Shown here: piece by piece, positions 1 through 15,534 of the stretch
How the letters are laid out: the number at the start of each line of letters is the position of its first letter
How positions within the stretch are numbered: the stretch's first letter is position 1
From: Lachnospiraceae bacterium
GTDB lineage: Bacteria > Bacillota > Clostridia > Lachnospirales > Lachnospiraceae
Direction of reading: 5' to 3'
Assembly (NCBI GenBank): GCA_029068555.1
Contig: JAIECJ010000147.1
Location: forward strand, 9,410 to 24,943
DNA length: 15,534 bases
Position numbers and translations under genes: made by a program
Notes under the pieces: model-generated
What the model was told of the DNA's origin: nothing
The model's input: the letters and a program-made list of their open reading frames with translations, nothing else
The model's database searches: none

Positions 1-437
1 ATACCAGCCTGAAAACGGTCAGGGAAAGAAAACACCTTTGGGTCATCAAAAGAGCCGATAATTTCCTTACTGGTGGCAAGTCCGCAGGTCGGGGTGCCAT
101 GACATGTGGTATAATACCCTACACGGATATCGTCAGTATAGCAGCGTCGTGCTTCCTTGACAGGGGCCAGGTCAATCATTAGTCTGTCATATCGCGGGCG
201 GACAATCTTCATGGTTCCGCGTTTTCCTGAGGTAATCTTGATGCGCACAAGTCCGGCTTCCTCGAGTTTCCCTACGTGCATGGATATTGCACCATTGGTA
301 AGACCAAGCGCTTCAGCAAGGTCATTCATGCTAAGGGAGTCATTTTCATATATCATTTCCATAATTTTCACGCGCATAGGTGTGCTTAATGCTTTAAAGA
401 CATTTTCGGCTTCGCCGACAGAACGAAAGTACAGCAT
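1..437 (-). CDS. ArsR/SmtB-like winged-helix transcriptional regulator with an extra Cys-containing C-terminal region (N-terminus complete; 3' end runs off the window)
   Basis: Not in the supplied ORF track because it is open at the window edge. Minus-strand translation from ATG at 437 gives MLYFRSVGEAENVFKALSTPMRVKIMEMIYENDSLSMNDLAEALGLTNGAISMHVGKLEEAGLVRIKITSGKRGTMKIVRPRYDRLMIDLAPVKEARRCYTDDIRVGYYTTCHGTPTCGLATSKEIIGSFDDPKVFSFPDRFQAG... with no stop. The pattern ALSxPxRxxI...L(S/N)xLAxxLGL(T/S)xxxxSxHxxxLxxAGLV is the ArsR-family HTH signature. A purine-rich RBS (GGAGAAGGGGG, minus strand, 449-459) lies upstream. Confidence 0.8.
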   Translation of the reverse strand, partial: MLYFRSVGEAENVFKALSTPMRVKIMEMIYENDSLSMNDLAEALGLTNGAISMHVGKLEEAGLVRIKITSGKRGTMKIVRPRYDRLMIDLAPVKEARRCYTDDIRVGYYTTCHGTPTCGLATSKEIIGSFDDPKVFSFPDRFQAG

Positions 438-463
438 AAGACAATCTACCCCCTTCTCCGGTC

Positions 464-1046: not shown

Positions 1047-4046
1047 ATGAAAAGAGGAAATGCAAAGAGAGTCATGGCGCTTAGCATGGCAGTATGTATG
1101 GTCGCAGCCACGGCAGTGACATCGCTTCCGACAATGCAGCTAAGGGCACAGGAATCAGAACAGACAACTCAGGGGACGGAGACAGAAAATTATTCAAATG
1201 AGAGACTGGATAACGGTTACACAAAAATCAGTGCGGGGTACACGCTTTCCGCATACACTGGGGAGCCGGTTCGCTACAAAATGAGCAATGTGTACAAATC
1301 AGGGGATGCCAGTCTGACAAGAGAGTATGGGTATGTGGGAAACGGAGAGGATGATGGCGCACTTTCCATTCCGGAGAAAGGAAAGGTGGAGCTTGAAATC
1401 GACGTGCCGCAGTCAGCAGTTTACTATATGAACTTTGACTATCTGGCAAATAGTGAGTCCATTCTTCCGGTTGAGGCAGGTATCATGGTTAATGGTGCCT
1501 ATCCGTTTTATGAGATGCGTCAGCAGAAGCTTGAGAGTCAGTGGACGGCGAAAGACAAAAAAGTGTATGACAGCTACGGCAATGAAGTTGTCAGCATGCC
1601 GGATAAGGTGTACGACTGGCAGAATAAGTATGTGCAGGATTCCACATACCGATATACACAGCCGCTTGGCATTGAGCTTCAGCAGGGGAAAAATTCCATT
1701 TCTATTGAATTAAATGAAGGTACCCTTTTGCTGGGGGACATTTGCCTGACGGCAAAGCCGCAGATACCAGAATACACAGGAAGCGAGACGGCGCCGGGCG
1801 ATGGATTTATCGAGATACAGGCGGAGGACTTTTTGTATAGAAACGATTCGGCAATCCATGCGACTTGTGAGTATGATCCGGATTTGTATCCCTATCAGGC
1901 GGGAAACAGGGTTATGAATACTGTTGATGCGACGTCTTTCGGAAAAGGTGGTCAGGAAGTGACTTACATCTTTGATGCAGAGCAGACAGGAAATTACTAT
2001 GTCGCATTTCACTACAGTCAGGGCGATAAAGCGGACTTCCCAGTATTTATGAATGTGAAGATAGATGGCAGTATTCCGAATACAGCCTTTGAAAATCATG
2101 CGTTTGCATATGAGAAAAAATATGAAATGTACACAATGGTTGACGGGGACGGAAACAGAATCAGCGTGCCGCTTGAGGCAGGCAGACATACGATTTCCAT
2201 GCAGATTAGCATGGAGCCGGTCCGAGAGTCCCTTGAGACCATTGAGAAAATTATGGGAAAGGTCAATGACCTGTCACTTGAGGTCACAAAGGTTGCTGGC
2301 ACAAACAAAGACAAATTCAGGGACTTCTCCCTGGAGGAATATATTCCGGGAATCGGCGAAACCATGACAGGGTGGGCGGATGAGTTGAATCAGGTCATGG
2401 AAAACGCAAGGGTGTATAATCCAAAGAAAAACAAGATAGCAGCATATGCCTCTATCAAGATTGCGGAGAACCAGCTGCGGAGTCTGGCAAAGAAGCCAGA
2501 TGAACTGATTTACAGAATCGACGAGCTTGCAACAAGCACCTCCTCTGTAAACCAGCATCTTGCCAACCTTATAGACAGTCTTAACGGCAATGATTTCGCG
2601 CTTGACAGTATTTATCTGTATCAGGAAAATGCTGCAAAGCAGCTTCCGAAGAACAAGAATATATTTGTGAAGGTATGGCTTGGCATTGTGCGGTTTTTTA
2701 CTTCCTTTGGCGAGCAGGCATACTCCTCGACAAATACCAATCCGGAGCATTTGCAGGTTTCGGTAAACCGTTCCAGACAGCACCTTGAGATTATGCAGCT
2801 TCTGATTAATGAGCAGTTTACACCGCAGACGGGAATAGAGGTAGACCTTTCTCTGATGCCGGATCAGACAAAGCTGGTGCTTGCCAATGCGTCAGGGGAT
2901 TCGCCGGACGTGGCAACAGGGGTCAATTACTCCATTCCGTTTGAGCTTGGTATCAGGGGGGCGTTGAAAGATCTGACGGAATTTGATGATTTTGCAGAGA
3001 TTGCGGAGCGTTACAATGCAGGACTTATTATGCCATATGTTATTGGTGACCGAATCTATGCGCTTCCGGAGACAATGAATTTCCAGGTGATGTTTTACAG
3101 GAAAGATATCCTTGACAAACTAGGACTTGAGGTTCCGGATACACTCGAGGATGTGCAGGCAATGCTCCCTGACTTGCAGATGAGAGGACTGAATTTTTAC
3201 TACCCGACGGCAAGGACGGTGGGTATGAAGACGTTTCTCGACACGACGCCGATTTTGTTCCAGAGCGGAGGAAATCTGTATGATGGTACGGTTGACCAGG
3301 CGGTGTTAACCAGCGAGGAGAATGTGGAAGGCTTTACAACAATGACAAACTTGTTTACCATATACAATCTTCCAAAGGATGTGCCAAACTTCTACCAGCA
3401 TTTTAGAAACGGGGATTATCCGATTGGTATTTCTGACTTTGGAAATTACAACATGATTTCGAATGCGGCTCCTGAGATTGACGGTTCATGGGGGGTGGCG
3501 CTGATTCCGGGTGTAAAGGATGAAAACGGAGAAGTGATGCGTTATTCATCGGCGGGCGCTGAGTCGACATTTCTGTTTGAATCTACACCTGAGCGGGAAC
3601 AGCAGGCATGGGAGTTTGTGAAGTGGTGGTCAAGTGCACAAGTGCAGGCTGAATTCGGACAGCGGCTTCAGATTACATATGGTGATGAATACTATTGGAA
3701 TACTGCAAATGCGGAGGCGTTTGCACAGCTTCCGTGGGACAGCGACGACAAAGAAGTTATTTTGGAGCAGCTTGAGTGGACGCTGGAGGCTCCGAGAGCG
3801 TTGGCAAGCTATATGGTGGAGCGTGAGCTTTCCGACGCATACAATCTTGTGGTGCTTGGAGCAAAGAGCGCTTCTGTGCGTGAGTCGCTTGATGATGCGC
3901 AGAAGAGTGTGAAGCGTGAGACCCAGAGAAAGCTTGAGGAATTTGGCTATATTGAGAATGGTGTGATGGTTGAGGAATATGAAGTGCCGACTGTCGAGAA
4001 AGTGCGTGAGATTATAGCCAATTCAAAATCGAAGGGGGTGAAATAG
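1047..4046 (+). CDS. Giant (~999 aa) secreted solute-binding protein: signal peptide, two tandem CBM6/35-like beta-sandwich modules, a helical linker, and a family-1 ABC sugar SBP domain
   Basis: ORF 1017-4046. I prefer the ATG at 1047 (MKRGNAKRVMALSMAVCMVAATAVTSLPTMQLRAQE is a positive N-region plus hydrophobic core) with AAAGG ~11 nt upstream. Module 2 opens with the CBM6/35-like 'FIEIQAEDF' and contains 'GQEVTYIFDAEQTGNYYVAFHYSQG'. Module 1 has the analogous 'GKVELEIDVPQSAVYYMNFDY'. The C-terminal ~400 aa (PDVATGVNYSIPFELGIRGALKDL...YALPETMNFQVMFYRKDILDKLGLEVPDTLEDV...WEFVKWW) reads as an extracellular solute-binding protein. Its stop codon directly abuts the ATG of a permease gene. Confidence 0.8.
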   Translation: MKRGNAKRVMALSMAVCMVAATAVTSLPTMQLRAQESEQTTQGTETENYSNERLDNGYTKISAGYTLSAYTGEPVRYKMSNVYKSGDASLTREYGYVGNGEDDGALSIPEKGKVELEIDVPQSAVYYMNFDYLANSESILPVEAGIMVNGAYPFYEMRQQKLESQWTAKDKKVYDSYGNEVVSMPDKVYDWQNKYVQDSTYRYTQPLGIELQQGKNSISIELNEGTLLLGDICLTAKPQIPEYTGSETAPGDGFIEIQAEDFLYRNDSAIHATCEYDPDLYPYQAGNRVMNTVDATSFGKGGQEVTYIFDAEQTGNYYVAFHYSQGDKADFPVFMNVKIDGSIPNTAFENHAFAYEKKYEMYTMVDGDGNRISVPLEAGRHTISMQISMEPVRESLETIEKIMGKVNDLSLEVTKVAGTNKDKFRDFSLEEYIPGIGETMTGWADELNQVMENARVYNPKKNKIAAYASIKIAENQLRSLAKKPDELIYRIDELATSTSSVNQHLANLIDSLNGNDFALDSIYLYQENAAKQLPKNKNIFVKVWLGIVRFFTSFGEQAYSSTNTNPEHLQVSVNRSRQHLEIMQLLINEQFTPQTGIEVDLSLMPDQTKLVLANASGDSPDVATGVNYSIPFELGIRGALKDLTEFDDFAEIAERYNAGLIMPYVIGDRIYALPETMNFQVMFYRKDILDKLGLEVPDTLEDVQAMLPDLQMRGLNFYYPTARTVGMKTFLDTTPILFQSGGNLYDGTVDQAVLTSEENVEGFTTMTNLFTIYNLPKDVPNFYQHFRNGDYPIGISDFGNYNMISNAAPEIDGSWGVALIPGVKDENGEVMRYSSAGAESTFLFESTPEREQQAWEFVKWWSSAQVQAEFGQRLQITYGDEYYWNTANAEAFAQLPWDSDDKEVILEQLEWTLEAPRALASYMVERELSDAYNLVVLGAKSASVRESLDDAQKSVKRETQRKLEEFGYIENGVMVEEYEVPTVEKVREIIANSKSKGVK

Positions 4047-4958
4047 ATGGCAGTCAAAAAAACCAAGGCTGCTCAGCGCGAGCATGCCAACAAGGCGGCG
4101 TATGCGTTTCTGGCTCCGTATGTAATCCTGTTTACCATCTTTATCATTATTCCAATGATGGTGGCAATAGCGCTTTCCTTTACAAGCTATGACACGATAC
4201 AGGCGCCTACTTTCAAAGGGTTTCTGAACTACATAAACCTGCTGACGGCGGATGATATTTTCATGCAGAAGGTATTGCCGAACACAATTATCTATGCGGT
4301 GATTGTAGGGCCTGGCGGATATGTCTTGTCGTTTCTGGTTGCATGGCTTCTGGCGCAGCTAAGCTCGGTTCCGAGAACAATACTGACAGTCATCTTTTAT
4401 TCACCGAGTATGACTGGAGCGGTGTCTATGACGGTGCTCTGGAAGATTATTTTCTCCGGTGACCAGATGGGGTACCTGAACAGTTTTCTGATGCGCCTGG
4501 GCGTTATCGACGCGCCGATTATCTGGCTGGTGGACGCCAGATACCTGCTTCCGATTATTATTATCGTAGCGCTGTGGTCGAGCATGGGCGTTGGATTCCT
4601 TGCGATGCTTGCCGGCATTCTGAATGCGGACGAGGAAATCTATGAGGCGGCAGCGATTGACGGTGTGAAGAACCGTTTTCAGGAGATGATTTATATCACG
4701 ATACCAACCATGAAACCGCAGATGCTTTTCGGTGCAGTTATGGCTATCGTGGGCGCTTTCCAGAACGGTGCAATCGGTGTCCAGCTTGCAGGAACAAACC
4801 CGACGCCAAATTATGCGGGGCAGCTGATTGTCAACCATATTGAAGATTATGGTTTCCTGAGATACGAGATGGGTTATGCCGCTGCAGTTTCTGTTGTGCT
4901 GCTTCTGATGGTGTTTGCATTCTCGAAGTTCTTCGGGCGGCTGTTTCGAGAAGATTAA
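4047..4958 (+). CDS. Carbohydrate ABC transporter permease (MalF/CUT1-type), importer 1
   Basis: 303 aa with multiple hydrophobic spans. The N-terminal '[21 protein letters not shown]' is typical of sugar permeases. EAA loop: '[29 protein letters not shown]'. GGGGGTG RBS upstream, and the ATG immediately follows the upstream TAG. Confidence 0.9.
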
Positions 4959-4970
4959 GGGAGGTGCGAT

Positions 4971-5843
4971 ATGGCTGGATATAAAGGAAGTAATATCAAT
5001 CCCAAGAAGTTTGAGATTGGTCAGTTAAAAATAGTACTGGTACTTTTGCCGCTTGCGGTTTTTATGGGGATTCCCATTGTGTTCATTGTCTGCCATGCGT
5101 TTAAACCGATGGATGAGTTGTTTGCGTTCCCACCGCAGATTATCGTACACAGGCCGACACTCGACAATTTTGTTAAATTGTTTAAGGCTTCGGCAAACAG
5201 CAATATTCCCATGAGCCGTTATGTGTTTAATAGTCTGATTGTGACAGGCTGCGTTGTTCTGTTGTCAATCCTGTTTTCCACGATGGCGGGATTTGCGCTG
5301 TCAAAGCTCCGTTTCAAGGGAAAGTATGCATTGCTTGAGGTGAACAATACTGCGTTGATGTTTGTGTCGGTGGCGGTTATGATTCCGAGATATCTTGTAA
5401 TTGATGCGCTTGGTATGAAGGATACATATTTTGCACATATTCTGCCGCTTCTCGCCATGCCTGTAGGACTGTTTCTGGTAAAACAGTTCATCGACCAGAT
5501 ACCAGATGCGCTGCTTGATGCGGCGTACATGGATGGAGCGTCGGATTTCAAGATTTATCGTTCGATTATTCTGCCGCTTGTGAAGCCGGCAATAGCGACG
5601 ACGGCGATTCTTGCTTTCCAGCAGGTCTGGGTAAATGTTGAGAGCTCAAATTTTTATATTAATGACGAGAGTATGAAGACGCTGGCATTTTATCTGAATA
5701 CACTGGCGAACCAGAATAGCAATGTGGCAGGGCAGGGAATTCAGGCTGCCGGTATTCTGATACAGTTTATACCGAATCTTGCAATTTTCTTAATCCTCCG
5801 GAAGAGCTTTATGAACACAATGGCTCATTCAGGCATCAAATAG
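4971..5843 (+). CDS. Carbohydrate ABC transporter permease (MalG/CUT1-type), importer 1
   Basis: 290 aa with multiple TM spans. EAA loop: 'LLDAAYMDGASDFKIYRSIILPLVKPAI'. GGGAGGTG RBS lies 6 nt upstream of the ATG. Confidence 0.9.
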   Translation: MAGYKGSNINPKKFEIGQLKIVLVLLPLAVFMGIPIVFIVCHAFKPMDELFAFPPQIIVHRPTLDNFVKLFKASANSNIPMSRYVFNSLIVTGCVVLLSILFSTMAGFALSKLRFKGKYALLEVNNTALMFVSVAVMIPRYLVIDALGMKDTYFAHILPLLAMPVGLFLVKQFIDQIPDALLDAAYMDGASDFKIYRSIILPLVKPAIATTAILAFQQVWVNVESSNFYINDESMKTLAFYLNTLANQNSNVAGQGIQAAGILIQFIPNLAIFLILRKSFMNTMAHSGIK

Positions 5844-5860: not shown

Positions 5861-7894
5861 ATGAGACAAAAAGTAAAAATGGTGATTTTGATGGTGTTGT
5901 GTCTAAGCATGATTGCCGGCTCCACAGCTATTGCTGAAACGCCTTATAGGACATATACGGTAGATGGTTACGGATACGTGCTGGAAACGCAGTCCGCATA
6001 CAATCCGGCGTCTGCCATCACAAAAGTCGGGGAGACCTCTTTTGTGACGCCGATGGATATGGCAATCGGAAATGATGGAAACCTGTATATTGCGGATGCG
6101 GGTGCTCATGTGGTTATGGTCAGCACAGTCGGAGGTGACGAAGTGCGCATGATTGGGGAGGGTACACTACAGTCGCCGACAGGTGTGTTTGTGTCGGATG
6201 ATGACAAGGTGTATGTCGCTGACAAGGATGCGAAAAAGGTATTTGTATATGACTTGGAAGGCACTCTTCTAAACGAGTATGGGAAGCCGGATTCACCGAT
6301 TTATGGGAACAGTATGGACTTCAAGCCAATCAAGGTTGTGGCAAACAACACAGGCACAATGTATGTGATTTGTGAGGGAAATATGAATGGTATTGTCCAG
6401 ATTAGCCCTGTGGACGGCGGTTCATTCCTTGGCTATTTTGGAACAAATTACACGTCGCTAAGCCCGTTTCAGATCCTGCAGCGGCTGATTCTGACGGACG
6501 CGCAGAGGGCGCAGATGCTGAGTAATATACCTTCGACACCGACCAATCTTCACATTGATGAGGACGGACTGATTTACACTGTGACACAGGGCGACAAGGA
6601 TATGGCACTGAAGAAGCTGAATATTGCGGGTAAAAACTTGCTGGATTCAGATCCATACTGGGCAGACCTGCCGGCGGCAGTGACGACAGGGCAGTATCAT
6701 AATATGCTGGTGGCAGACTCGGATGGATATATTTACGAGTACAATGAGGAGGGTGAGCTTCTGTTTATGTTTGGCGGACGGGATGACGGACGCCAGCGAA
6801 TCGGCCTGTGCAACAAGGTAGAGGCAGTGGCAGTAGATGCTTCTGACAGGATTTACCTGCTGGATTCGGACAAGAGGCAGGTACATATTTTTGAGCCGAC
6901 AGAGTTTACAAACCTTCTTCACGAAGCGCTGTATCTGTTTTCAAAAGGAAGGTATACAGAGAGCAAGGAGCCGCTTGAAAAAGTTTTGCAGATGAACAGT
7001 ATGTTTGACTATGCCAACCAGGCGATGGGGCATGCATATCTGCAGGAGGAGAATTATACAGAAGCGCTGCGGTATTTTAAGTTAGCCAAGTCAGCAGACG
7101 GTTATTCGGATGCGTTCTGGGAGGTCAGAAATATTTGGATTCGGAATTATCTGGTGGCGGCGGTTGCAGCGATTGTGGCAGCATCAGTGGCGCTCAGCCT
7201 TTATAAAAAGAGGCAGCGAATCAAGTACGGGGAGAATGGTGCACCTGCATATTTTTCACAGAGAGTACCGCTTCTGGGAACACTCAGGTACAGTCTGCAT
7301 TTTATGCGGCATCCGTTTGACGGCTGCTATGGCGTGAAACGTGAAGGCCGGGCGAGCATTGCCTGCGCGAATATTCTGCTTGCGGCATACATCCTTGTCT
7401 CGATTATTGAGAAGTACTTCAGCGGTTTTCTTGTAAAGACAGTCAGGGAAGGTCGGTATGACATTATTTCGGATATTGGCACAGTTCTTGTTATTTTTTT
7501 CGGATTGACGCTCTGCAATTATCTGGTTGTTACAATCAATGAGGGCGAGGCTTTTTTGAAAGAGCTGTACTGTGCTTATGCATACTGTCTGACTCCATTT
7601 ATCGTTATTAAACCATTTGTAGTGATTCTGTCAAATGTGCTGACGTACAATGAAGTTTTCCTGATTTCGTTTGCAAACATTATTGTATTGGTATGGATGC
7701 TGGTACTGTTATTGATATCTGTTAAGGAGATGAATAATTTTTCGGTAAAGGAGACGGCAAAAGCGCTGGCGCTGACTGCATTTACCGTTTTGATACTCTC
7801 CCTGCTGATTTGTATTATATATGTATTGTTCTCACAGGTTATCGACTTCATAAGTTCTGTATTGCGAGAGGTGGTGTATAGAATTGGAAGCTAA
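5861..7894 (+). CDS. Membrane fusion protein: signal peptide, six-bladed NHL-like beta-propeller, TPR-like helices, a TM helix, and a C-terminal 5-TM Yip1-like domain
   Basis: 677 aa with an AAGGAGGTG RBS. Signal peptide: MVILMVLCLSMIAGSTAIA/ET. There are six repeats of the NHL-type blade motif (GNLYIADAGAHVVMV; DKVYVADKDAKKVFVYD; GTMYVICEGNMNGIVQI; GLIYTVTQGDKDMALKKL; MLVADSDGYIYEYN; DRIYLLDSDKRQVHIFE). TPR-like segment: ALYLFSKGRYTESKEPLEKVLQMNSMFDYANQAMGHAYLQEENYTEALRYFKLAK. A TM helix (LVAAVAAIVAASVALSLY) is followed by KKRQRIK. About 5 further TM helices follow, in a region that reads like a Yip1-family domain. Confidence 0.75.
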   Translation: MRQKVKMVILMVLCLSMIAGSTAIAETPYRTYTVDGYGYVLETQSAYNPASAITKVGETSFVTPMDMAIGNDGNLYIADAGAHVVMVSTVGGDEVRMIGEGTLQSPTGVFVSDDDKVYVADKDAKKVFVYDLEGTLLNEYGKPDSPIYGNSMDFKPIKVVANNTGTMYVICEGNMNGIVQISPVDGGSFLGYFGTNYTSLSPFQILQRLILTDAQRAQMLSNIPSTPTNLHIDEDGLIYTVTQGDKDMALKKLNIAGKNLLDSDPYWADLPAAVTTGQYHNMLVADSDGYIYEYNEEGELLFMFGGRDDGRQRIGLCNKVEAVAVDASDRIYLLDSDKRQVHIFEPTEFTNLLHEALYLFSKGRYTESKEPLEKVLQMNSMFDYANQAMGHAYLQEENYTEALRYFKLAKSADGYSDAFWEVRNIWIRNYLVAAVAAIVAASVALSLYKKRQRIKYGENGAPAYFSQRVPLLGTLRYSLHFMRHPFDGCYGVKREGRASIACANILLAAYILVSIIEKYFSGFLVKTVREGRYDIISDIGTVLVIFFGLTLCNYLVVTINEGEAFLKELYCAYAYCLTPFIVIKPFVVILSNVLTYNEVFLISFANIIVLVWMLVLLLISVKEMNNFSVKETAKALALTAFTVLILSLLICIIYVLFSQVIDFISSVLREVVYRIGS

Positions 7895-7901
7895 AGTTGA
7901 T

Positions 7902-10217
7902 ATGAAGAAAACAGGCAAGGGCCTTATAAAATTTGGCATAGCTGTGCTGGCCATTATCGTTATTGTGGCAGTTGCAGTGGCGGCTTCCAAGTCCGGTGGG
8001 AAGGACAGCCTGAATGTCAGTGAGCTTCAAACGGCAGTGAATGCACCTGAGGCTGCACTGAGCGATGGCGCTGTGGATACGTCCAGACAGCTTGACGGAC
8101 ATCATCTGGTGGCGGCAAATGATACCTACGAGCTTTATCTGTATGAACCTGCACTTTCCATTATTGTTAAAAATATAAAGACAGGTGCGGTGATGGAGTC
8201 CACTGTCCGTGACGAGGAGCGTCTTGGAAATGTCAATGAGACATGGAAAGGATTTTTACAGTCGGGAATTGTTGTGGAGCTTCAGGAGGAGACCAACACT
8301 ATGCAGAAGAAGCTGGGACTAGAGGGAAGCGGTGCACAAGTCAATGTTGAACTGATTCCTGGCGGATTCCGTGCAAAGGTAGATTATCCGACGCAGGAGC
8401 TTGGGTTTGAAACCGAGGTGAAGCTCTATGACGACGGAAGTATCACAGCATGTATTCCTGAGCGTTCTATCTATGAGCACGCAGATAACAAAAAGATTGG
8501 TAACATTTATGTGTTTCCGCTTCTTGGAAACTCAAGGCTTGGTGAGAAAGACGGGTACATGTTTGTGCCGGATGGAAACGGCGCACTGATTTATCTGGAC
8601 GACAAGGAAGGACGGTTTGATTCTGGATATGTTCAGAAGGTGTATGGCTCTGACATTGGCGTCGGAGAGTCCTATGTGCTTTCTCTTTTGTGGGGGCGCT
8701 ACGAGACACACAATGATGCGGAGATGATTCTGGCGCCGGTTTACGGCATGGTTCACACAGGAGATGAGATGGGATATCTTGCCGTTATCGAGAGCGGTGA
8801 TGAGGAGGCTTCCATCTATGCGACACCCAACGGTGCATATTCCGATTACAACTGGATTACGGCAGCATTCCGGAAGTGCACGACCTATATCCAGCCGACA
8901 TCTAATTCAGGCGGTTCTGTTACAAAAGTAACTGACAGGATAAAATACGACATTAATGTCAGGTATATGTTTGTCGACGGTGAGGATGCAGACTACACAG
9001 GACTGGCAAAACGCTACAGGGAGTATCTCCTGGAAAAGGATGAGCTGGTCAGGGTGGAGGACAGTTTTAAGGTGCGGCTTGACTTCCTTGGGCTGGATGT
9101 CGAAAACTGGATGCTGTGGAAAAAGGATGTGCCGGTGACGACTGTAGACAATATCAGGGAAATGTATGCAGACTTGGAAAAAGAGGGTGTCACAGATATT
9201 CTTTCTTTGTACAAAGGATGGCAGGATGGCGGCATTTATGACTTGCCTGTGACCACATATGATGTGGCGGGCGGCATAGGCGGCGCAGGTGACTTGTCGA
9301 AGCTCATGGACGAATGTGAGCAGAAAAATATTGATTTTTACCTATTTACAGACGGTGTGCGTGCAAACACCGAGACTGGAAACACAACATTTGACACGGT
9401 TAAGAAGATGGATAAACGTCTCTACACACAGAATACATACCAGAATGTGTATCGTGAGTTTGTGTACTGGACACCGCAGAAAACACTTGAAAATTTAAAC
9501 ACACTTCAGAAGAATCTCGCAAAAAAGGGTGTCAATAAGATCGCATTGTCAGTAATTGGGAATACGCTGTTTACCTACACGATGGGTGATACGATGCAGA
9601 CCCGCGGCGTCTCAAAATACCTGTACGAAGAAGCGCTGAGACAGACAAGTGAGAATATGGATCTAATGCTGGAAGCGCCGGTTGAATGCTATTGGCAGTA
9701 TGCAAAAGCGATTGTGGATATGCCGATTGACGACTCCGATTATATTTACACAGACCAAAGCGTACCGTTTTTGTCGATTGTATTAAAGGGAATCCTTCCG
9801 ATGTATGGCGACTATGTGAATTTTGAGGCAAATGAGAGGGAGTATTTCTTAAAACTGGTGGAGACAGGAATCTATCCATCGTTTTATCTGACATATGAGA
9901 ATCCGTCTGAACTGATTTATACCAATTCAAGCCATGTGTATACTTCACAGTACACAGTGTACCGTGAACAGATACTGCGTTATTACAATGAGCTGCGGCA
10001 GATTAGTGAGCTTACGAAAAACAGTATGATTGATGAACATGAAATAACTGACACAGGTGTCATAATTGTAACCTATGATAATGGTGTAAAGCTGTATATC
10101 AATTATTCTGACGCAGAGCTGAAGGCAGATGACGTGACAGTTCCCGCACTTTCATATGTGGCTCGTGTAAATAATGAATTGACAGGCATAGCAGGAATGG
10201 GGGTGGATGAAGGATGA
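7902..10217 (+). CDS. N-terminally membrane-anchored extracytoplasmic protein, DUF5696-like; putative uncharacterised glycoside-hydrolase-like enzyme
   Basis: The ORF track opens at TTG 7884, which has GAGAGGTGG ~10 nt upstream and would overlap the upstream gene by 11 nt. The first ATG is at 7902 (MKKTGKGLIKFGIAVLAIIVIVAVAVAAS, a signal anchor), so the start is ambiguous between these two. The body shows beta-rich N-terminal and C-terminal parts flanking alternating beta/alpha segments (RLDFLGLD, ILSLYKGWQDGG, IDFYLFTDG, KIALSVIGN, LMLEAPVE, VDMPIDDSDY). The family name is from memory of similar ~800 aa proteins next to sugar ABC genes and needs an HMM check. Confidence 0.65.
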   Translation: MKKTGKGLIKFGIAVLAIIVIVAVAVAASKSGGKDSLNVSELQTAVNAPEAALSDGAVDTSRQLDGHHLVAANDTYELYLYEPALSIIVKNIKTGAVMESTVRDEERLGNVNETWKGFLQSGIVVELQEETNTMQKKLGLEGSGAQVNVELIPGGFRAKVDYPTQELGFETEVKLYDDGSITACIPERSIYEHADNKKIGNIYVFPLLGNSRLGEKDGYMFVPDGNGALIYLDDKEGRFDSGYVQKVYGSDIGVGESYVLSLLWGRYETHNDAEMILAPVYGMVHTGDEMGYLAVIESGDEEASIYATPNGAYSDYNWITAAFRKCTTYIQPTSNSGGSVTKVTDRIKYDINVRYMFVDGEDADYTGLAKRYREYLLEKDELVRVEDSFKVRLDFLGLDVENWMLWKKDVPVTTVDNIREMYADLEKEGVTDILSLYKGWQDGGIYDLPVTTYDVAGGIGGAGDLSKLMDECEQKNIDFYLFTDGVRANTETGNTTFDTVKKMDKRLYTQNTYQNVYREFVYWTPQKTLENLNTLQKNLAKKGVNKIALSVIGNTLFTYTMGDTMQTRGVSKYLYEEALRQTSENMDLMLEAPVECYWQYAKAIVDMPIDDSDYIYTDQSVPFLSIVLKGILPMYGDYVNFEANEREYFLKLVETGIYPSFYLTYENPSELIYTNSSHVYTSQYTVYREQILRYYNELRQISELTKNSMIDEHEITDTGVIIVTYDNGVKLYINYSDAELKADDVTVPALSYVARVNNELTGIAGMGVDEG

Positions 10218-11236
10218 AGGGCAGCAGAAAAATAAAACCCGGACAGCTTGAGCGCCGGGAGAATGCGATTGGTTATCTTTTCATATTGCCATGGCTTATC
10301 GGAATCCTGGTGCTGGTGCTGTGGCCGATGGTGCAGTCCTTTGGGTATTCGCTCAATAAGATAAGGCTCTTGCCGCAGGGTATGGCAAAGCTCTATGTCG
10401 GATTTGAGAATTATAGTCAGATATTCCTAAAGGATCCGGATTTCATTATGGGACTGGAATCGTATCTGCTGGAGACATTGATTGCCGTTCCGGTTATTGT
10501 GGCATTTTCACTGATTATAGCGATGCTGTTGAATCAGAAAATTTCCTGCAGAGGAATTTTTCGAATGGTATTCTTCCTTCCGATTATCATCGCCAGCGGA
10601 CCAGTCATGCAGCAGCTGGCCGACCAGGAGGCGGCGAGCATTCCAATGATGAATGTGACGATGATAGAGCAGCTTTTGGATGAGTATCTTCCGCATGTGC
10701 TGGCAGTGAGTCTCACAAGCGTATTTAGTAATATGATTACGCTGCTATGGTACTCCGGCGTACAGATTTTGATTTTCCTTGCGGCGTTGCAGAAGATTGA
10801 TACTTCGCTTTATGAGGCGGCAAAGATGGATGGCGGTTCCAAGTGGGAATGCTTCTGGAAGATTACACTGCCGACCGTCAAGCCGATGATTCTGCTGAAT
10901 GTTGTCTACACAGTAATCTTTATGTCAAATAATGAGCAGAATGCGTTGATTGTACTGATTTATGACACGATGCTTTCCGCCACGGGCGGTTACGGATATG
11001 CTTCCGCGATGGCATGGCTGTATTCTGTCATCGAGTCGGCAATTGTTATTTTCTTTGCGGTCCTGATTATGGGACGCAAGGACGTGTACGAGAGACGTGC
11101 AAAGAAGTACCAGCGTGAGCTGAGGAAACAAAAACGCCTTGAGAAGAAGATTAGAAAGAGGGGTGAGCGAAATGAGCGAAACTACGCAAAGCAAAAAGAG
11201 AAGCGGCAGCGAAAGCATTCTAAAAAGAGTGCTTAG
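10214..11236 (+). CDS. Carbohydrate ABC transporter permease (MalF-type), importer 2, with an unusual ~48 aa Lys/Arg-rich C-terminal tail
   Basis: 340 aa. The ATG overlaps the upstream TGA (ATGA at 10214-10217), with a GGGGGTGGATGAAGG RBS. N-terminus: 'IGYLFILPWLIGILVLVLWPM'. EAA loop: 'SLYEAAKMDGGSKWECFWKITLPTVKPMI'. Tail: YERRAKKYQRELRKQKRLEKKIRKRGERNERNYAKQKEKRQRKHSKKSA. Confidence 0.9.
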   Translation: MKGSRKIKPGQLERRENAIGYLFILPWLIGILVLVLWPMVQSFGYSLNKIRLLPQGMAKLYVGFENYSQIFLKDPDFIMGLESYLLETLIAVPVIVAFSLIIAMLLNQKISCRGIFRMVFFLPIIIASGPVMQQLADQEAASIPMMNVTMIEQLLDEYLPHVLAVSLTSVFSNMITLLWYSGVQILIFLAALQKIDTSLYEAAKMDGGSKWECFWKITLPTVKPMILLNVVYTVIFMSNNEQNALIVLIYDTMLSATGGYGYASAMAWLYSVIESAIVIFFAVLIMGRKDVYERRAKKYQRELRKQKRLEKKIRKRGERNERNYAKQKEKRQRKHSKKSA

Positions 11237-12197
11237 TTCCGAGGGCAGGGAACAGATAAAGTACAAGGTCAGAAAATTTATATTTGGTTCCAAGGATACA
11301 GAGGGTGCAGGTAAGCTTGCCGTAATCTATCTGCTGCTAATCAGCATTGGGTTTGTCTATCTCTATCCGGTTCTGTATATGATCAGCAAGAGCTTTATGA
11401 ACCTCAATGATTTGCTCGACACCTCGATTAACTGGATTCCAAGCCAGCTGTATCTTGAAAATTACAAACAGGCATTTCAGTCCATGGACTACTGGAAGAC
11501 GTTTCGCGATTCTGTCGTGATTGCGGGATTTCCGACATTGATAAACGTTGTTATTTGCGCCATTGTCGGATATGGATTTGCGCGCTATGAGTTCAAGGGG
11601 AAGAAGCTATGTATCGGACTGCTTCTGTTTTCTTTCATCCTGCCGCCGCAGGCAACAATGATGCCTACCTATGTGTTTTATACAGATATCGGATTAATCA
11701 ATTCGATTATGGCGTTTATCATCCCGGCGCTGCTTGGACAGGGACTGAAATCGCAGATATTTATCCTGATTTTCTTTAACTTTTTCCGTCAGATACCGAA
11801 GGTACTGATAGAGGCGGCAAAGATAGACGGGGCAGGACATTTTAAGATTTTCCGCAAAATTGCGCTGCCCTCCGCGGCTCCCGCGATTCTGGTTGTGTTC
11901 CTGTTCTCAATTGTATGGTACTGGAATGAGTCATATCTGACGCAGCTCTATGTCGTTGGCGCGTTTACAAGCAATGCGGACGCGTATCACTGGAGTTCGC
12001 TGATTGTATCGCTCAAGAATTTTGAAAATAGTTACAATACTGCAAGAAGTGTCGCCGGAAGCGGAATGGTTGACATTAACGAGTCGATTAAGATGGCTGG
12101 GACGATGCTCAGTATATTACCACTGCTGATTATGTATCTGGTACTTCAGAAGCAGTTTGTTGAGAGCGTGGACAGAACCGGAATCACCGGGGAATAA
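11172..12197 (+). CDS. Carbohydrate ABC transporter permease (MalG-type), importer 2
   Basis: The ORF is open from 11139. I prefer ATG 11172 (MSETTQSKKRSGS...), which has a GAGGGGTG RBS ~6 nt upstream. This gives a 65 nt overlap with the upstream gene. An alternative GTG at 11229 has no RBS. EAA loop: 'LIEAAKIDGAGHFKIFRKIALPSAAPAI'; multiple TM spans. Confidence 0.85.
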   Translation: MSETTQSKKRSGSESILKRVLSSEGREQIKYKVRKFIFGSKDTEGAGKLAVIYLLLISIGFVYLYPVLYMISKSFMNLNDLLDTSINWIPSQLYLENYKQAFQSMDYWKTFRDSVVIAGFPTLINVVICAIVGYGFARYEFKGKKLCIGLLLFSFILPPQATMMPTYVFYTDIGLINSIMAFIIPALLGQGLKSQIFILIFFNFFRQIPKVLIEAAKIDGAGHFKIFRKIALPSAAPAILVVFLFSIVWYWNESYLTQLYVVGAFTSNADAYHWSSLIVSLKNFENSYNTARSVAGSGMVDINESIKMAGTMLSILPLLIMYLVLQKQFVESVDRTGITGE

Positions 12198-12258: not shown

Positions 12259-13869
12259 ATGAAAAAGAAAATGGTAAGCTTTATGATGACTGCGGCTTTG
12301 GCGGCTGGTCTGCTTAGTGGGTGCGGTGGAGGTTCCGGCTCGGCTCCGGCGACTGACAGCGCCAGCACTGGAACAAATGCAGGTGCGAATACGGATGCAA
12401 ATGCAAGTTCAGGGGATACGGCAGGTGACACGGCTGCGGCTGGGGAGCTTCCGGCGATGACTACGGATGAGATTACACTGACTTATATGCATTTTGACAA
12501 TGAGCAGCTTGTAAACAGGGTGGCGGAAGCATTTATGGATAAGTACCCGAATATCAAAGTGGAAGCACAGGCGTTTTCCACGGACGGATATAATGACACT
12601 CTTCTGAATCTTGTTCAGTCCGGTCAGACGCCTGACTGCTTTATGATTCTGGGTAACTGTGATTTCGCGCTCTCCAATGCGCTGCTTGGCGATATGACAC
12701 CGTACTGGGAGGCTGACCCTGAGAATCAGAATATCCTTCCTTCCATCAACAGTGCGAGGCTTGGTTATTATGGAACAGACAAGAAGCTTGCGACACCGAT
12801 TAAGTTTTTTCCGGATGCAATTTACTGTGATTTGAATGTGTTTGAGACCTTGAATATTGAAGCGCCATCTACAAACTGGACATGGGACGAGATGATCAAT
12901 ACGTTTAAGGCTGCGACCAATACGGACGCAGGAACCTATGGGTTTAACCAGTTCCACTCCGTTGTCACATATTATCCGATTTCCAACGGCAACAATCTGA
13001 TAGGAGAGTTTGGATGGGATGGCAAGGCATATCATATGGATCAGTGGGCAGCAGGTGTAAACCAGTGGGCGGAGCTTGTAAATGGAAAGTATCATGCACC
13101 GTATGGCGATACAGACGAGATGGAGGCATGGACAGGTGACAGAACGATGTGGGCGGCATACACAGGAAAACTTGGTTTCCAGATTGACGCGTGGTGGACT
13201 TATCTGAACCTGTTTGATACGCCGGACTATAGAAACCGCGGTATGGAATGGGTTCCTTACACAACACCGGCAAGCCAGAGCGGATATGTATTTGGCGTGC
13301 TTGACTTCGGCGGTATTTCTTCTTCTACAAAACATCCAAGAGAGGCGTATGAGCTTTTAAAGTGGATGGGCTGGGGCGCTGAAGGCTGGCAGACAAAGCT
13401 TGATGCTTATCAGGATGTCGAGACTTATGCGGATCTTCCGCTCTACAGACAGTCAATGCCTTGTCCGATTACGACAGATGCGGATATCTGGAAAGAGTTC
13501 CAGGAGTCCTTCTATCCGACAGCAGCCACAAGAACATTCCAGGCAGTAAATGACCCGGTAAACGGTGAAGCGCTTGTTACGGCAGACGAGGACACGAAGT
13601 ACGGCAAGTATTTTGATGATTTCTTCGCAAACTGCAAGAATCCGATACCATTTGGCGACTGTCAGATTCCGGGATTTGCTGACTTCCTTGATACATCTTA
13701 TCGTGCAGTGGGCGATACGCTGGGCGTGGAAGATCAGGTTCGCTTAGAGGGCAAAAATGCAAGTGACTTTGCGGCAGAGCTTGAACAGAAAGCTTACGAT
13801 GCAAATCAGGCAGCTTTGGCAGCAGCCAAGGAAGCATATCAGATGATTGGTATTGAACTGAATTATTAA
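12259..13869 (+). CDS. Lipoprotein extracellular solute-binding protein (family 1, large LplA-like sugar SBP), importer 2
   Basis: 536 aa with an AAGGAGG RBS at 12244-12250. Signal peptide with a canonical lipobox: MKKKMVSFMMTAALAAGLLSG/C. This is followed by a ~45 aa Gly/Ser/Thr/Ala/Asp low-complexity tether, then an SBP-like body (ITLTYMHFDNEQ...YPNIKVE...EAYELLKWMGWG). Confidence 0.85.
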   Translation: MKKKMVSFMMTAALAAGLLSGCGGGSGSAPATDSASTGTNAGANTDANASSGDTAGDTAAAGELPAMTTDEITLTYMHFDNEQLVNRVAEAFMDKYPNIKVEAQAFSTDGYNDTLLNLVQSGQTPDCFMILGNCDFALSNALLGDMTPYWEADPENQNILPSINSARLGYYGTDKKLATPIKFFPDAIYCDLNVFETLNIEAPSTNWTWDEMINTFKAATNTDAGTYGFNQFHSVVTYYPISNGNNLIGEFGWDGKAYHMDQWAAGVNQWAELVNGKYHAPYGDTDEMEAWTGDRTMWAAYTGKLGFQIDAWWTYLNLFDTPDYRNRGMEWVPYTTPASQSGYVFGVLDFGGISSSTKHPREAYELLKWMGWGAEGWQTKLDAYQDVETYADLPLYRQSMPCPITTDADIWKEFQESFYPTAATRTFQAVNDPVNGEALVTADEDTKYGKYFDDFFANCKNPIPFGDCQIPGFADFLDTSYRAVGDTLGVEDQVRLEGKNASDFAAELEQKAYDANQAALAAAKEAYQMIGIELNY

Positions 13870-13978: not shown

Positions 13979-15534
13979 ATGATAAAAAAAGTAGCGGCAG
14001 GAATGCTTGTGACTGCCCTTTTGACGGGAATGCTCGGCGGCTGTGAAAACGGCAGGACAGATTCTGCAGGCAGTGAGGCGCCTGTGCAGGAAAGCACTGT
14101 GTCAGAAGTGCATACAGATGAAAGTAATGCAACGGGCGAGAATCATACACAAAATATGCAGCCAGACAAAACGGCGCAGGAAGAGGAGGAAACAGAAATG
14201 ACAGAAGTGTCATTTAATCGTGTGAGTGTGCATGACCCTTCAGTCCGATATGATAACGGAACCTACTACATTTTTGGTTCTCATATGGCTTGGGCGAAAA
14301 GCACAGATTTGAGAAACTGGGAAACCTTTCAGACGAACATCAATGCAGACTATGCAAGTCTGTTTGGAAAGGAGTGGGAGGCGTACTGCAGGACGGCAAC
14401 AAATCCAGACCTGAACGGAAACCTGTGGGCGCCGGATGTCATTTATAATCCGAACATGGATAAGTATTGTTTTTATATGAGCGTAAATGGCAATGACTGG
14501 AATTCGGTGATTGTTCTGCTCACTGCGGACAGCATAGAGGGACCATATGAGTACGCGGGACCAGTGGTGTACTCGGGTTTTAATACGGACTCGCATGATG
14601 TCAGGCTCACGGATGTATATCAGGTGCTCGGGGAAGATGCAGACCTTGCCAGATATCAGAATATCAAAAACACCAAGCTCAATGCAATCGATCCATGCGT
14701 CCTTTTCGACAGGGATGGATCGCTCTGGATGGTATTTGGCTCCTGGTTTGGCGGCTTGTACATGCTCAGGCTCGACGAGAACACAGGGCTTCGCGACTAT
14801 ACGACAACATATGAAACGATACCGAACGCGCAGGATGCGTATTATGGCTATAAGGTGCATGGCGGGTTTGGTGTGTCTGGGGAGGGACCTTATATTATAG
14901 AAAAAGACGGATACTATTATCTGTTTGTCTCTTACGGCGGACTTGTGGCGGACGGCGGCTATCAGATTCGCATATTCCGTTCGAAAAATATTATGGGACC
15001 TTACGTGGACGAGGCGGGAAACAGCGCAGTCTACACAAAGGAGTGCAATGATCTATTTGAAAAGGTAGGCGTCCGCATCATGGGTTCCTATGACTGGACA
15101 GGAAATCGTGAAATCCGTGTGGCGCAGGGACACAATTCTGCGTGTGTGACAGAGGACGGTGAAATTTTCATGATATACCACTCACGGTTTGCCGGCGGCA
15201 AAAATGGTGTTTCGGAGGCACATGAGGTACGCGTGCAGCAGCTCTTTGTCAATGAAGACGGCTGGCTTGTCGCAGCGCCTTACGAATACGCAGGTGAGAA
15301 AATCAGCAGGACAGGATATGCTGTCGAGGAGATGTGTGGTGATTACGAATGGATAGTGCATATGCCGACAACATATTATCAAAAAGCTGGAAGCAAGACG
15401 TTGGGAGTCATGCAGCCGTCAAAAATAACATTGAATGCGGATGGAACGGTTTCAGGCGAACTTACAGGAAAGTGGACGTATGAAGACGGAACGCCCAATA
15501 TGACAATCACAGTTGACGGTGTGACATATAAAGG
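13979..15534 (+). CDS. Glycoside hydrolase family 43 lipoprotein (arabinanase/arabinofuranosidase/xylosidase-type five-bladed propeller plus start of a C-terminal beta-sandwich); 3' end runs off the window
   Basis: Not in the ORF track because it is open at the window edge. The ATG at 13979 is preceded by AGGAGGA (13966-13972). The frame stays open to 15534. Signal and lipobox: MIKKVAAGMLVTALLTGMLGG/C. An acidic low-complexity tether follows. GH43 hallmark motifs are 'VHDPSVRYDNGTYYIFGSH' (catalytic base Asp), 'LWAPDVIYN', 'NAIDPCVLFDRDGSLWMVFGSW' (pKa-modulating Asp), 'GEGPYIIEKDGYYYLFVSYG' (catalytic acid Glu) and 'AQGHNS'. Confidence 0.85.
   Translation, partial: MIKKVAAGMLVTALLTGMLGGCENGRTDSAGSEAPVQESTVSEVHTDESNATGENHTQNMQPDKTAQEEEETEMTEVSFNRVSVHDPSVRYDNGTYYIFGSHMAWAKSTDLRNWETFQTNINADYASLFGKEWEAYCRTATNPDLNGNLWAPDVIYNPNMDKYCFYMSVNGNDWNSVIVLLTADSIEGPYEYAGPVVYSGFNTDSHDVRLTDVYQVLGEDADLARYQNIKNTKLNAIDPCVLFDRDGSLWMVFGSWFGGLYMLRLDENTGLRDYTTTYETIPNAQDAYYGYKVHGGFGVSGEGPYIIEKDGYYYLFVSYGGLVADGGYQIRIFRSKNIMGPYVDEAGNSAVYTKECNDLFEKVGVRIMGSYDWTGNREIRVAQGHNSACVTEDGEIFMIYHSRFAGGKNGVSEAHEVRVQQLFVNEDGWLVAAPYEYAGEKISRTGYAVEEMCGDYEWIVHMPTTYYQKAGSKTLGVMQPSKITLNADGTVSGELTGKWTYEDGTPNMTITVDGVTYK

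Follow-up and report, generated by a model that had tools for sequence, protein, structure and literature searches.

A DUF5696 protein from the dual-importer cassette of a Lachnospiraceae bacterium has a GH129-like fold and an asparagine aligned with the catalytic nucleophile

Is the large membrane-anchored protein that is encoded between two pairs of ATP-binding cassette (ABC) permease genes in a Lachnospiraceae bacterium a glycoside hydrolase (GH), and how would it serve the neighboring importers? The stretch of DNA that raises this question, called the window in the following, comprises 15,534 nucleotides (nt) of contig JAIECJ010000147.1 (positions 9,410 to 24,943). The gene, termed the target gene here, spans 7902..10217 on the forward strand, to which all coordinates below refer unless noted otherwise, and its product has 771 amino acids (aa). 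A first-pass annotation, made from the sequence alone, had regarded the protein as a candidate founding member of an uncharacterized GH family. The protein belongs to the known family DUF5696 and, as judged from alignments, it is homologous to enzymes of the GH129 type and lacks the residue that defines their catalysis. Fold and family are already known; notable are the deviation at the catalytic center, the lack of any characterized core member of the family, and the gene cassette around it, which is undescribed in the literature found.

The target protein matches the Pfam model of DUF5696 (PF18952) over its full length with 549.9 bits (gathering cut-off: 25.6 bits) and an E value of 9.9e-165, and its residues 149-752 align with profile positions 4-612 of 612. 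The early guess that the protein is DUF5696-like was thus correct. The designation as a founding member has to be given up, because the family is already catalogued in Pfam and is large: in an exhaustive search with HMMER through 1.84 billion cluster representatives, 4,167 relatives had E <= 1e-3, and 1,559 of them reached E <= 1e-30 (counted as clusters at 50% identity). When 8,000 candidates were scored against the target protein itself, 717 proteins were homologous to it with E <= 1e-5. With such matches, the open reading frame is clearly not a chance product. Family members are rather uniform in length (690-810 aa in 134 of the 150 best representatives), and inspection of 40 N-termini revealed mostly hydrophobic segments, i.e., signal peptides or anchors, or lipobox-like sequences. 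The target protein fits this typical architecture of about 700-800 aa with an N-terminal membrane-targeting segment (transmembrane residues 8-26). No further Pfam family matches it even at E <= 10, in agreement with the previous statement that it has no recognizable GH family motif, and a scan against NCBIfam yielded nothing meaningful. DUF5696 proteins, where they carry a name in their sources, are called 'hypothetical' or 'DUF5696 domain-containing'. A literature search found no paper that names DUF5696 or PF18952, and literature on Yip1, NHL, and solute-binding proteins (SBPs) and on beta-1,2-glucan clusters contained nothing on the target protein. A peculiarity of its clade is Cys326 (8877-8879), which is present in 119 of 119 close relatives at a position that is occupied by Arg in 93% of the wider family; it represents a clade-specific change at one of the best-conserved polar positions of DUF5696.

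The structure of the protein was predicted with AlphaFold2 (AF2) from an alignment of 135 diverse DUF5696 members (alignment A1), which was also used as family profile. The model has a predicted local distance difference test (pLDDT) value of 92.8 and a predicted template modeling (pTM) score of 0.91. It consists of an N-terminal beta-rich domain (aa ~60-360; 8079..8981), which is seen in the AF2 secondary structure, in the conservation, and in an hhalign match of 94.7%, a linker helix (aa 365-378; 8994..9035), which was delimited by HMMER and hhalign alignments, a (beta/alpha)8 barrel (aa ~389-704; 9066..10013), and a C-terminal beta-sandwich (aa 710-761; 10029..10184) with the invariant Asn734. 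According to DSSP, the barrel strands comprise residues 391-396, 433-438, 478-484, 546-550, 587-591, 603-605, 634-638, and 658-664; these strands and an equal number of helices follow each other in alternation from residue 391 to residue 704, and the flanking regions 60-360 and 710-761 are all-beta. The barrel was also recovered by Foldseek, which aligned it with the barrels of GH129-like, GH129, and GH101 enzymes. The layout of N-terminal beta domain, (beta/alpha)8 barrel, and C-terminal beta domain, which had been proposed from the letters, is therefore borne out by the model and by its glycosidase matches. The most conserved motifs of the family are located in the N-terminal domain, namely, E192, GYMFxPDGxGA (218-228), YGxDxG (248-253), and PVxGxVH (279-285).

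To which enzymes is this fold related? The target sequence alone did not retrieve any match from the PDB. The A1 profile matched DagB (8rzk, 8rzg, 5opq) with an E value of ~1e-7 and with pieces in all three domains, and it matched NagBb (5wzn) with an E value of 1.4e-5 over 89 residues, which comprise barrel strands 1-3. DagB (ZGAL_3152) is the 'GH129-like' exo-alpha-1,3-(3,6-anhydro)-D-galactosidase of Zobellia galactanivorans (PDB 5OPQ, 8RZK), and NagBb is the GH129 alpha-N-acetylgalactosaminidase of Bifidobacterium bifidum (5WZN). A comparison of A1 with DagB-like fragments using hhalign gave a probability of 94.6% over 432 columns, and of 94.7% over the 270 columns of the N-terminal domain. 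Foldseek ranked the same two structures first, DagB 5opq (GH129-like; E 4e-32, TM-scores 0.62/0.72) and NagBb 5wzn (GH129; E 5.9e-27, 0.60/0.73). They were followed by the GH101 enzymes SpGH101 and EngBF (E ~1e-20, TM-score ~0.48), by a galactosaminidase of Flavonifractor, which we take to be a GH36 enzyme (E ~1e-17 to 1e-18, TM-score ~0.5), and by several GH31 enzymes (E 1e-16 to 1e-13, TM-score 0.4-0.5). Profile and fold comparisons thus tie DUF5696 to the GH129-like enzymes, and it is not an orphan fold. DUF5696 is a distant relative of DagB and of the GH129 enzyme NagBb, and it is more distantly related to GH101, GH36, and GH31.

The degree of relationship differs among these enzymes. The target model shares with DagB the three-domain plan, which was described as a distorted beta-sandwich, a TIM barrel, and an immunoglobulin-like C-terminal domain (PMC5698469), and the profile homology extends over all three domains, including the C-terminal sandwich, which could be aligned with the C-domain of DagB. 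A further common feature is the linker motif DYxxMAxxYR (AdYxGMAxxYR in the family, DYVDMAKVYQ in DagB). However, the identity between the two proteins is only ~9-12%, and DagB is a soluble periplasmic enzyme that belongs to a carrageenan polysaccharide utilization locus of Bacteroidetes, whereas the target protein is membrane-anchored and is encoded in an ABC importer cassette of Firmicutes. NagBb shares the overall fold; it acts in the utilization of mucin O-glycans, in contrast to the gene context of DUF5696, which consists of plant and bacterial glycan loci. GH101 (SpGH101 5A55, EngBF 2ZXQ), GH36, and GH31 enzymes have the same core of N-terminal beta domain, (beta/alpha)8 barrel, and C-terminal beta domain (Foldseek E 1e-20 to 1e-13), but the structural match is weaker (TM-score 0.4-0.5, root-mean-square deviation 7-14 A) and no sequence-profile match exists. 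The arrangement had originally been compared with GH31/GH36-type enzymes. This holds true for the general fold, but DagB and NagBb are closer by profile, by hhalign, and by Foldseek, and membership in GH31 or GH36 was rejected, as the protein has no Pfam match to either family and the fold match is weaker (E 1e-16 to 1e-13). The DagB-like fragments are borderline on both PF18952 (14-27 bits, compared to 550 for the target protein) and PF11308, the GH129 model, and proteins of the DagB type therefore sit between both Pfam families. These fragments (P0383-P0386) have additional sub-threshold matches to Pfam DUF6259 (PF19773) around the acid/base motif GTE, which hints that DUF6259 is a third uncharacterized family of the same superfamily.

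The relationship to GH129-like enzymes makes it possible to ask whether the catalytic residues have been retained. In DagB, Asp202, Asp486, and Glu517 show strict conservation, and these residues and Glu531 are needed for activity; the acid/base Glu478 of NagBb is not conserved in DagB (PMC5698469). Asp486 of DagB is the counterpart of the nucleophile Asp435 of NagBb. The DagB-like fragments contain the wild-type motifs '...LGLEADITD...' and '...GTE...'. HMMER and hhalign aligned the target protein with DagB in one and the same register: Asp486 is replaced by Asn554 (codon 9561..9563), Glu517 is retained as Glu591 at the end of strand 5 (codon 9672..9674; hhalign), and Arg500 corresponds to the conserved Arg568. 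The counterparts of the two other DagB residues are less clear. Glu531 aligns ambiguously with Val605, one residue before Asp606, and Asp202 falls into a loop near Asp251 in a low-confidence part of the alignment. The A1-NagBb alignment stops before Glu478 is reached. The region between helices 3 and 4 (aa 544-567) contains a single acid, D563, at a position that is Asp in 13% of the family, and for this reason the conclusion that the nucleophile has been lost is independent of the exact register. If the target protein is an enzyme, its mechanism differs from that of the GH129 type. The relocation of a catalytic residue within a family has a precedent: GH97 contains inverting as well as retaining enzymes, and the position of the catalytic base or nucleophile is not the same in all of them.

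It might be argued that the asparagine is an alignment artefact, and that the protein works like an ordinary retaining GH129-type alpha-glycosidase, with the strand-4 Asp nucleophile and the Glu acid/base that NagBb and DagB employ. GH129-like proteins are indeed the best matches both in fold and in profile, and the confidence of hhalign around the nucleophile is low (1-4 out of 9). However, two independent aligners agree on the register, D563 would be the sole candidate acid in its surroundings and is poorly conserved, no column near 554 exceeds an acidic share of 45%, and the target protein does not match PF11308 even at E <= 10. An ordinary GH129 enzyme is therefore highly unlikely. The reading as a canonical GH129 enzyme was rejected because the nucleophile is not conserved.

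Which residues have been retained instead? The subfamily of the target protein (138 sequences with about 30% identity or more) has Asn554 in 82% of its members (Asp in 10%), Glu591 in 79% (Asp in 13%, so that 92% have Glu or Asp at this position), Asp484 in 97%, and Asp606 in 82%, and all four residues are invariant in the 119 close relatives. Seven of the eight barrel strands have, at their ends or directly behind them, residues that are at least 95% conserved in the subfamily or acidic in at least 90% of its members: R392 and D394 (strand 1), Y437, W440, and Q441 (strand 2), D484 and N489 (strand 3), E591 and W598 (strand 5), S612 (strand 6), Y635, Y638, and N640 (strand 7), and S660 and T664 (strand 8). 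When N554 and D606, which follow strands 4 and 6, respectively, are included, conserved polar or aromatic residues mark the C-terminal end of all eight strands. In the predicted structure, this pattern is typical of a barrel face that functions in sugar binding. Acids that are conserved family-wide are E192, D224, D/E394, D/E399, and D/E654, the last of which is not located at the barrel end where catalysis would be expected.

A second line of evidence comes from the gene neighborhood. The arrangement of the window is syntenic in 19 genomes, which belong to Lachnospiraceae or Roseburia and are nearly all metagenome-assembled, with 72-90% identity of the target protein. The same cassette of eight genes is present in nine of nine informative distant contexts with DUF5696 identities of 26-43%, i.e., in all contexts with enough flanking DNA (P0131 and P0266 are on short contigs, and L027 is partial). 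Its order is an SBP, a giant SBP, two permeases, an NHL-(TPR)-Yip1 protein, DUF5696, and two further permeases; in the distant cassettes the first SBP has ~455-500 aa, the giant SBP 971-1000 aa, and the NHL-Yip1 protein 665-709 aa. In all contexts examined, the NHL-Yip1 gene lies directly upstream of the DUF5696 gene, the start of which it often overlaps. For each of the 18 loci with a callable downstream start, the distance between the DUF5696 gene and the following permease gene falls into the range of -11 to +12 nt, and an ATGA junction occurs in nine of the 19 loci examined. In the window, ATGA forms the stop/start overlap at 10214..10217. The overlap, which had been noticed before, is real and suggests translational coupling; the stoichiometric co-production that had been derived from it goes beyond this. 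Similarly, the claim that the protein feeds the importers agrees with the tight coupling to the importer genes, but it understates the fixed cassette with its NHL-TPR-Yip1 protein and giant SBP.

The cassette resembles CUT1-type ABC importers for oligosaccharides, which also consist of an SBP and two permeases with BPD_transp_1 domains, have no ATPase gene in the operon, and are encoded adjacent to GH43 or GH94/GH3/GH144 enzymes. The sophoro-oligosaccharide system Lin1841 of Listeria (5YSB) is an example. The arabinan systems of Geobacillus and Bacillus are of this type as well. In contrast to these systems, the DUF5696 cassette fuses two importers and adds the ~1000-aa SBP, the NHL-TPR-Yip1 protein, and DUF5696. 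No description of the DUF5696 cassette was found in the literature search.

The cassette is constant, but the flanking enzymes differ. Loci of the arabinan type (the window, L022, and L023) contain a GH43 enzyme with AbfB, a GH43 enzyme with GH43_C, and a GH51 enzyme. Loci of the beta-1,2-glucan type (L021, L024, L025, L026, and L028) contain a GH94-type 1,2-beta-oligoglucan phosphorylase, a homologue of the GH144 endo-beta-1,2-glucanase (match to PDB 5gzh with E 3e-34), GH3, and GH35-like enzymes. Residues of the pocket region of DUF5696 co-vary with the glycan type of the locus, as far as this can be read from the alignment: the combination is S550-N554-Y559-E591-D618 in the arabinan-type loci and D550-x-D/S559-Y591-T618 in most loci of the beta-1,2-glucan type, the subfamily of which has Tyr at position 591; P0248 has Arg at both 550 and 618. 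It is conceivable that DUF5696 is an accessory for the assembly or regulation of the transporters that does not contact glycans directly, e.g., a chaperone or a docking protein for NHL-Yip1 or the SBPs, and such a role would be in accord with the fact that DUF5696 strictly co-occurs with the NHL-Yip1 and permease genes and has overlapping junctions with both. The polar and aromatic residues of the sugar face, which are conserved and differ between subfamilies in parallel with the glycan of the locus, would not be expected for a protein-protein adaptor, and this explanation is quite improbable. The GH144-like genes themselves differ in their export signals: the gene in L024 (17670-18989) has a lipoprotein signal, and those in L025 (13475-15010) and L026 (14113-15351) have no signal peptide. 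Therefore, the site of depolymerization may differ among otherwise similar loci.

Taken together, we tentatively favor, at slightly less than an even chance, that the target protein is a surface glycan-processing enzyme with non-canonical catalysis that is dedicated to the import cassette. The ectodomain would bind an arabinose-containing oligo- or polysaccharide in a pocket on the C-terminal face of the barrel. The neighboring GH43 lipoprotein, which resembles endo-arabinanases, would release this substrate or make it accessible, and the bound glycan would most likely be arabinan or the arabino-oligosaccharides made by this lipoprotein. The protein would then cleave or remodel the glycan with a non-canonical set of acids, in which Glu591 would serve as general acid, the second carboxylate might be provided by Asp484, by Asp606, or by Asp224 or Asp251 of the N-terminal domain, and Asn554 would stand in the place of the classical nucleophile of strand 4. 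The products would pass to the two adjacent ABC importers. These putative roles were assigned by sequence alignment and secondary structure.

Several observations weigh against such an enzymatic activity. Asn554 occupies the position of the GH129 nucleophile Asp435, albeit in a stretch of low alignment confidence, and the corresponding DagB mutant D486N was used to obtain a Michaelis complex (title of PDB 8rzk). The acidic share in the whole family is 45% at column 550, 14% at column 554 (N33 S32 D12 T9 Y9 and others), and 44% at column 559, and no column within six positions of 554 is above 45%; column 591 (Y59 E22 D11) is acidic in only 24%. At the conserved acidic positions 394, 399, and 654, Asp and Glu replace each other freely, a behavior that catalytic residues do not usually show, and the strictly invariant columns P223, G227, N640, L650, and N734 look structural. 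Lastly, the cassette remains constant when the flanks switch from the arabinan type to the beta-1,2-glucan type, which fits a generic, non-catalytic role.

These points lead to a different explanation, namely, that DUF5696 is a non-catalytic pseudo-glycosidase, which would act as a membrane-tethered glycan receptor or scaffold and hand the captured substrate over to the giant SBP, the NHL-Yip1 protein, and the permeases. This possibility is very much alive, because an Asn at the nucleophile position is equivalent to the change that gave a substrate-bound Michaelis complex in DagB. The family-wide variation of the canonical catalytic positions, the invariant cassette with its differing catabolic enzymes, the tight gene junctions on both sides of DUF5696, and the conservation of pocket residues within subfamilies, which fits specific binding, also speak for a receptor. 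On the other hand, the acids D394, D484, E591, and D606 on the catalytic face are strongly kept in the subfamily, about 10% of the subfamily have an Asp at position 554, and the maintenance of an enzyme fold of ~750 aa over ~4,000 clusters would be costly for mere binding, given that carbohydrate-binding modules (CBMs) are small. In addition, a receptor would leave L021 and L026 without any extracellular depolymerase: all flanking GHs of these two loci lack a signal peptide, so that DUF5696 is the only extracytoplasmic protein with a GH fold there. Our preference leans toward catalysis because several acids are kept at the catalytic face and because some loci have no other candidate for an extracellular enzyme; the receptor is a serious, if less probable, explanation. 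The early proposal of a glycoside hydrolase is in accord with the glycosidase-like fold, but with Asn554 at the nucleophile position and canonical positions that are not conserved it is unproven.

Irrespective of the choice between enzyme and receptor, DUF5696, the NHL-TPR-Yip1 protein, the ~1000-aa SBP, and the two permease pairs could together form an undescribed machine of Firmicutes for the capture, processing, and import of glycans, a Gram-positive counterpart of the 'utilisome' that has been re-tuned to different glycans (arabinan, beta-1,2-glucan). DUF5696 would contribute either as a GH or transglycosylase family that has a new mechanism and catalytic residues that no longer occupy the GH129 positions, or as a natural 'trapping mutant' receptor. 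We regard this proposal as possible, although somewhat short of probable. DUF5696 is abundant, and the clade of the target protein is common in gut-derived genomes of Lachnospiraceae and Roseburia. The protein is experimentally tractable for three reasons: it is tied to the GH129/GH101 superfamily, it has lost the canonical nucleophile, and it occupies a fixed place in a dual-importer cassette. A catalytic DUF5696 would establish a GH family of its own, or else a novel mechanism within a known fold, with dietary arabinan or bacterial beta-1,2-glucan as substrate. A non-catalytic one would be a widespread pseudo-glycosidase that serves transporters as glycan receptor. In both cases, glycan-utilization loci of Gram-positive bacteria would be annotated differently, and the cassette could be used as a genomic marker for new loci of this kind.

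The N-terminus of the target protein deserves a closer look. The open reading frame (ORF) that had been described at 7884..10217 was confirmed in the ORF list and comprises 777 codons from a TTG. Gene callers and homologues favor the ATG at 7902, which leads to the 771 aa given above, and the database protein P0001 also has 771 aa and is 100% identical. The TTG at 7884 has a better match to a Shine-Dalgarno sequence (GAGAGGTGG) and adds six residues, and the start is therefore uncertain by six residues, with a protein of 777 aa being possible. Within the candidate-start region (7866-7904), the TTG overlaps the upstream stop by 11 nt, and the ATG, which has a weaker GGAAG match, lies 7 nt past the upstream stop. 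The annotated DUF5696 start in distant loci is mostly 8-17 nt inside the upstream NHL-Yip1 gene. A hydropathy scan revealed one hydrophobic segment only, residues 8-26 (7923..7979), which is part of an AF2 helix at 7-31 and follows the basic sequence MKKTGKG. Because this basic sequence precedes the lone transmembrane segment, the rest of the protein is located outside the cell. The single anchor and all motifs that had been quoted were found in the protein: IKFGIAVLAIIVIVAVAVAAS at residues 9-29, FVPDGNGALIYLDD at 221-234, RLDFLGLD at 392-399, YKGWQDGG at 437-444, FYLFTDG at 479-485, LEAPVE at 590-595, VDMPIDDSDY at 605-614, VIIVTYDNGVKLYINYSD at 720-737, and VTVPALSY at 745-752.

The partner genes in the window were assigned from Pfam and PDB matches. 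The giant SBP (1047..4046) has 999 aa with the SBP domain at aa 582-872, and its size of 971-1000 aa is retained wherever the cassette contig reaches, down to 26% DUF5696 identity. Its N-terminal 547 aa had no PDB or Pfam match; by eye, the N-terminal extension of ~580 aa seems to consist of CBM-like beta-sandwiches followed by a helical region. The first pair of permeases (4047..5843; genes at 4047-4958 and 4971-5843; Pfam BPD_transp_1) is followed by the gene of the NHL-TPR-Yip1 protein (5861..7894). This protein of 677 aa contains a signal peptide, a six-bladed NHL propeller, TPR repeats, and six transmembrane segments, as judged from Pfam, PDB profile, and transmembrane scans; after the TPR part, one transmembrane segment and a cytoplasmic loop precede the Yip1 domain with its five segments. 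The best PDB profile matches of the propeller are the extracellular sensor of PknD and NHL proteins. Downstream of the target gene, the second pair of permeases (10214..12197; genes at 10214-11236 and 11139-12197; BPD_transp_1) is followed by a second SBP, a lipoprotein of 536 aa (12259..13869; Pfam SBP_bac_1, lipobox LLSGC), and by the GH43 lipoprotein with a GH43_C domain (13979..15534), which is cut by the window end. The latter is closest to endo-1,5-alpha-L-arabinanases (PDB 4kca, E 4.5e-104; Pfam). No ATPase gene is present within the cassette, and a scan of the window for internal terminators found none that was convincing, which fits one operon but is weak evidence.

Two further features were observed in the neighboring genes. 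The third permease ends in a Lys/Arg-rich tail of ~45 aa (11139-11236), which is also present in L001, L025, and L029. The DNA that encodes this tail overlaps the 5' end of the ORF of the fourth permease out of frame by up to ~98 nt, and the situation is similar in related loci. At the start of the window, a divergent gene encodes an ArsR/MarR-type winged-helix regulator (1..459, minus strand), which is cut by the window start. The full-length version in L001 (1631-2563, minus strand) has 310 aa, including a C-terminal extension of ~165 aa. Counterparts of 300 aa are found at the same position in the arabinan-type loci L022 and L023, and in the beta-1,2-glucan-type loci L021 and L024 a LacI-type regulator is present in place of the ArsR/MarR-type regulator.

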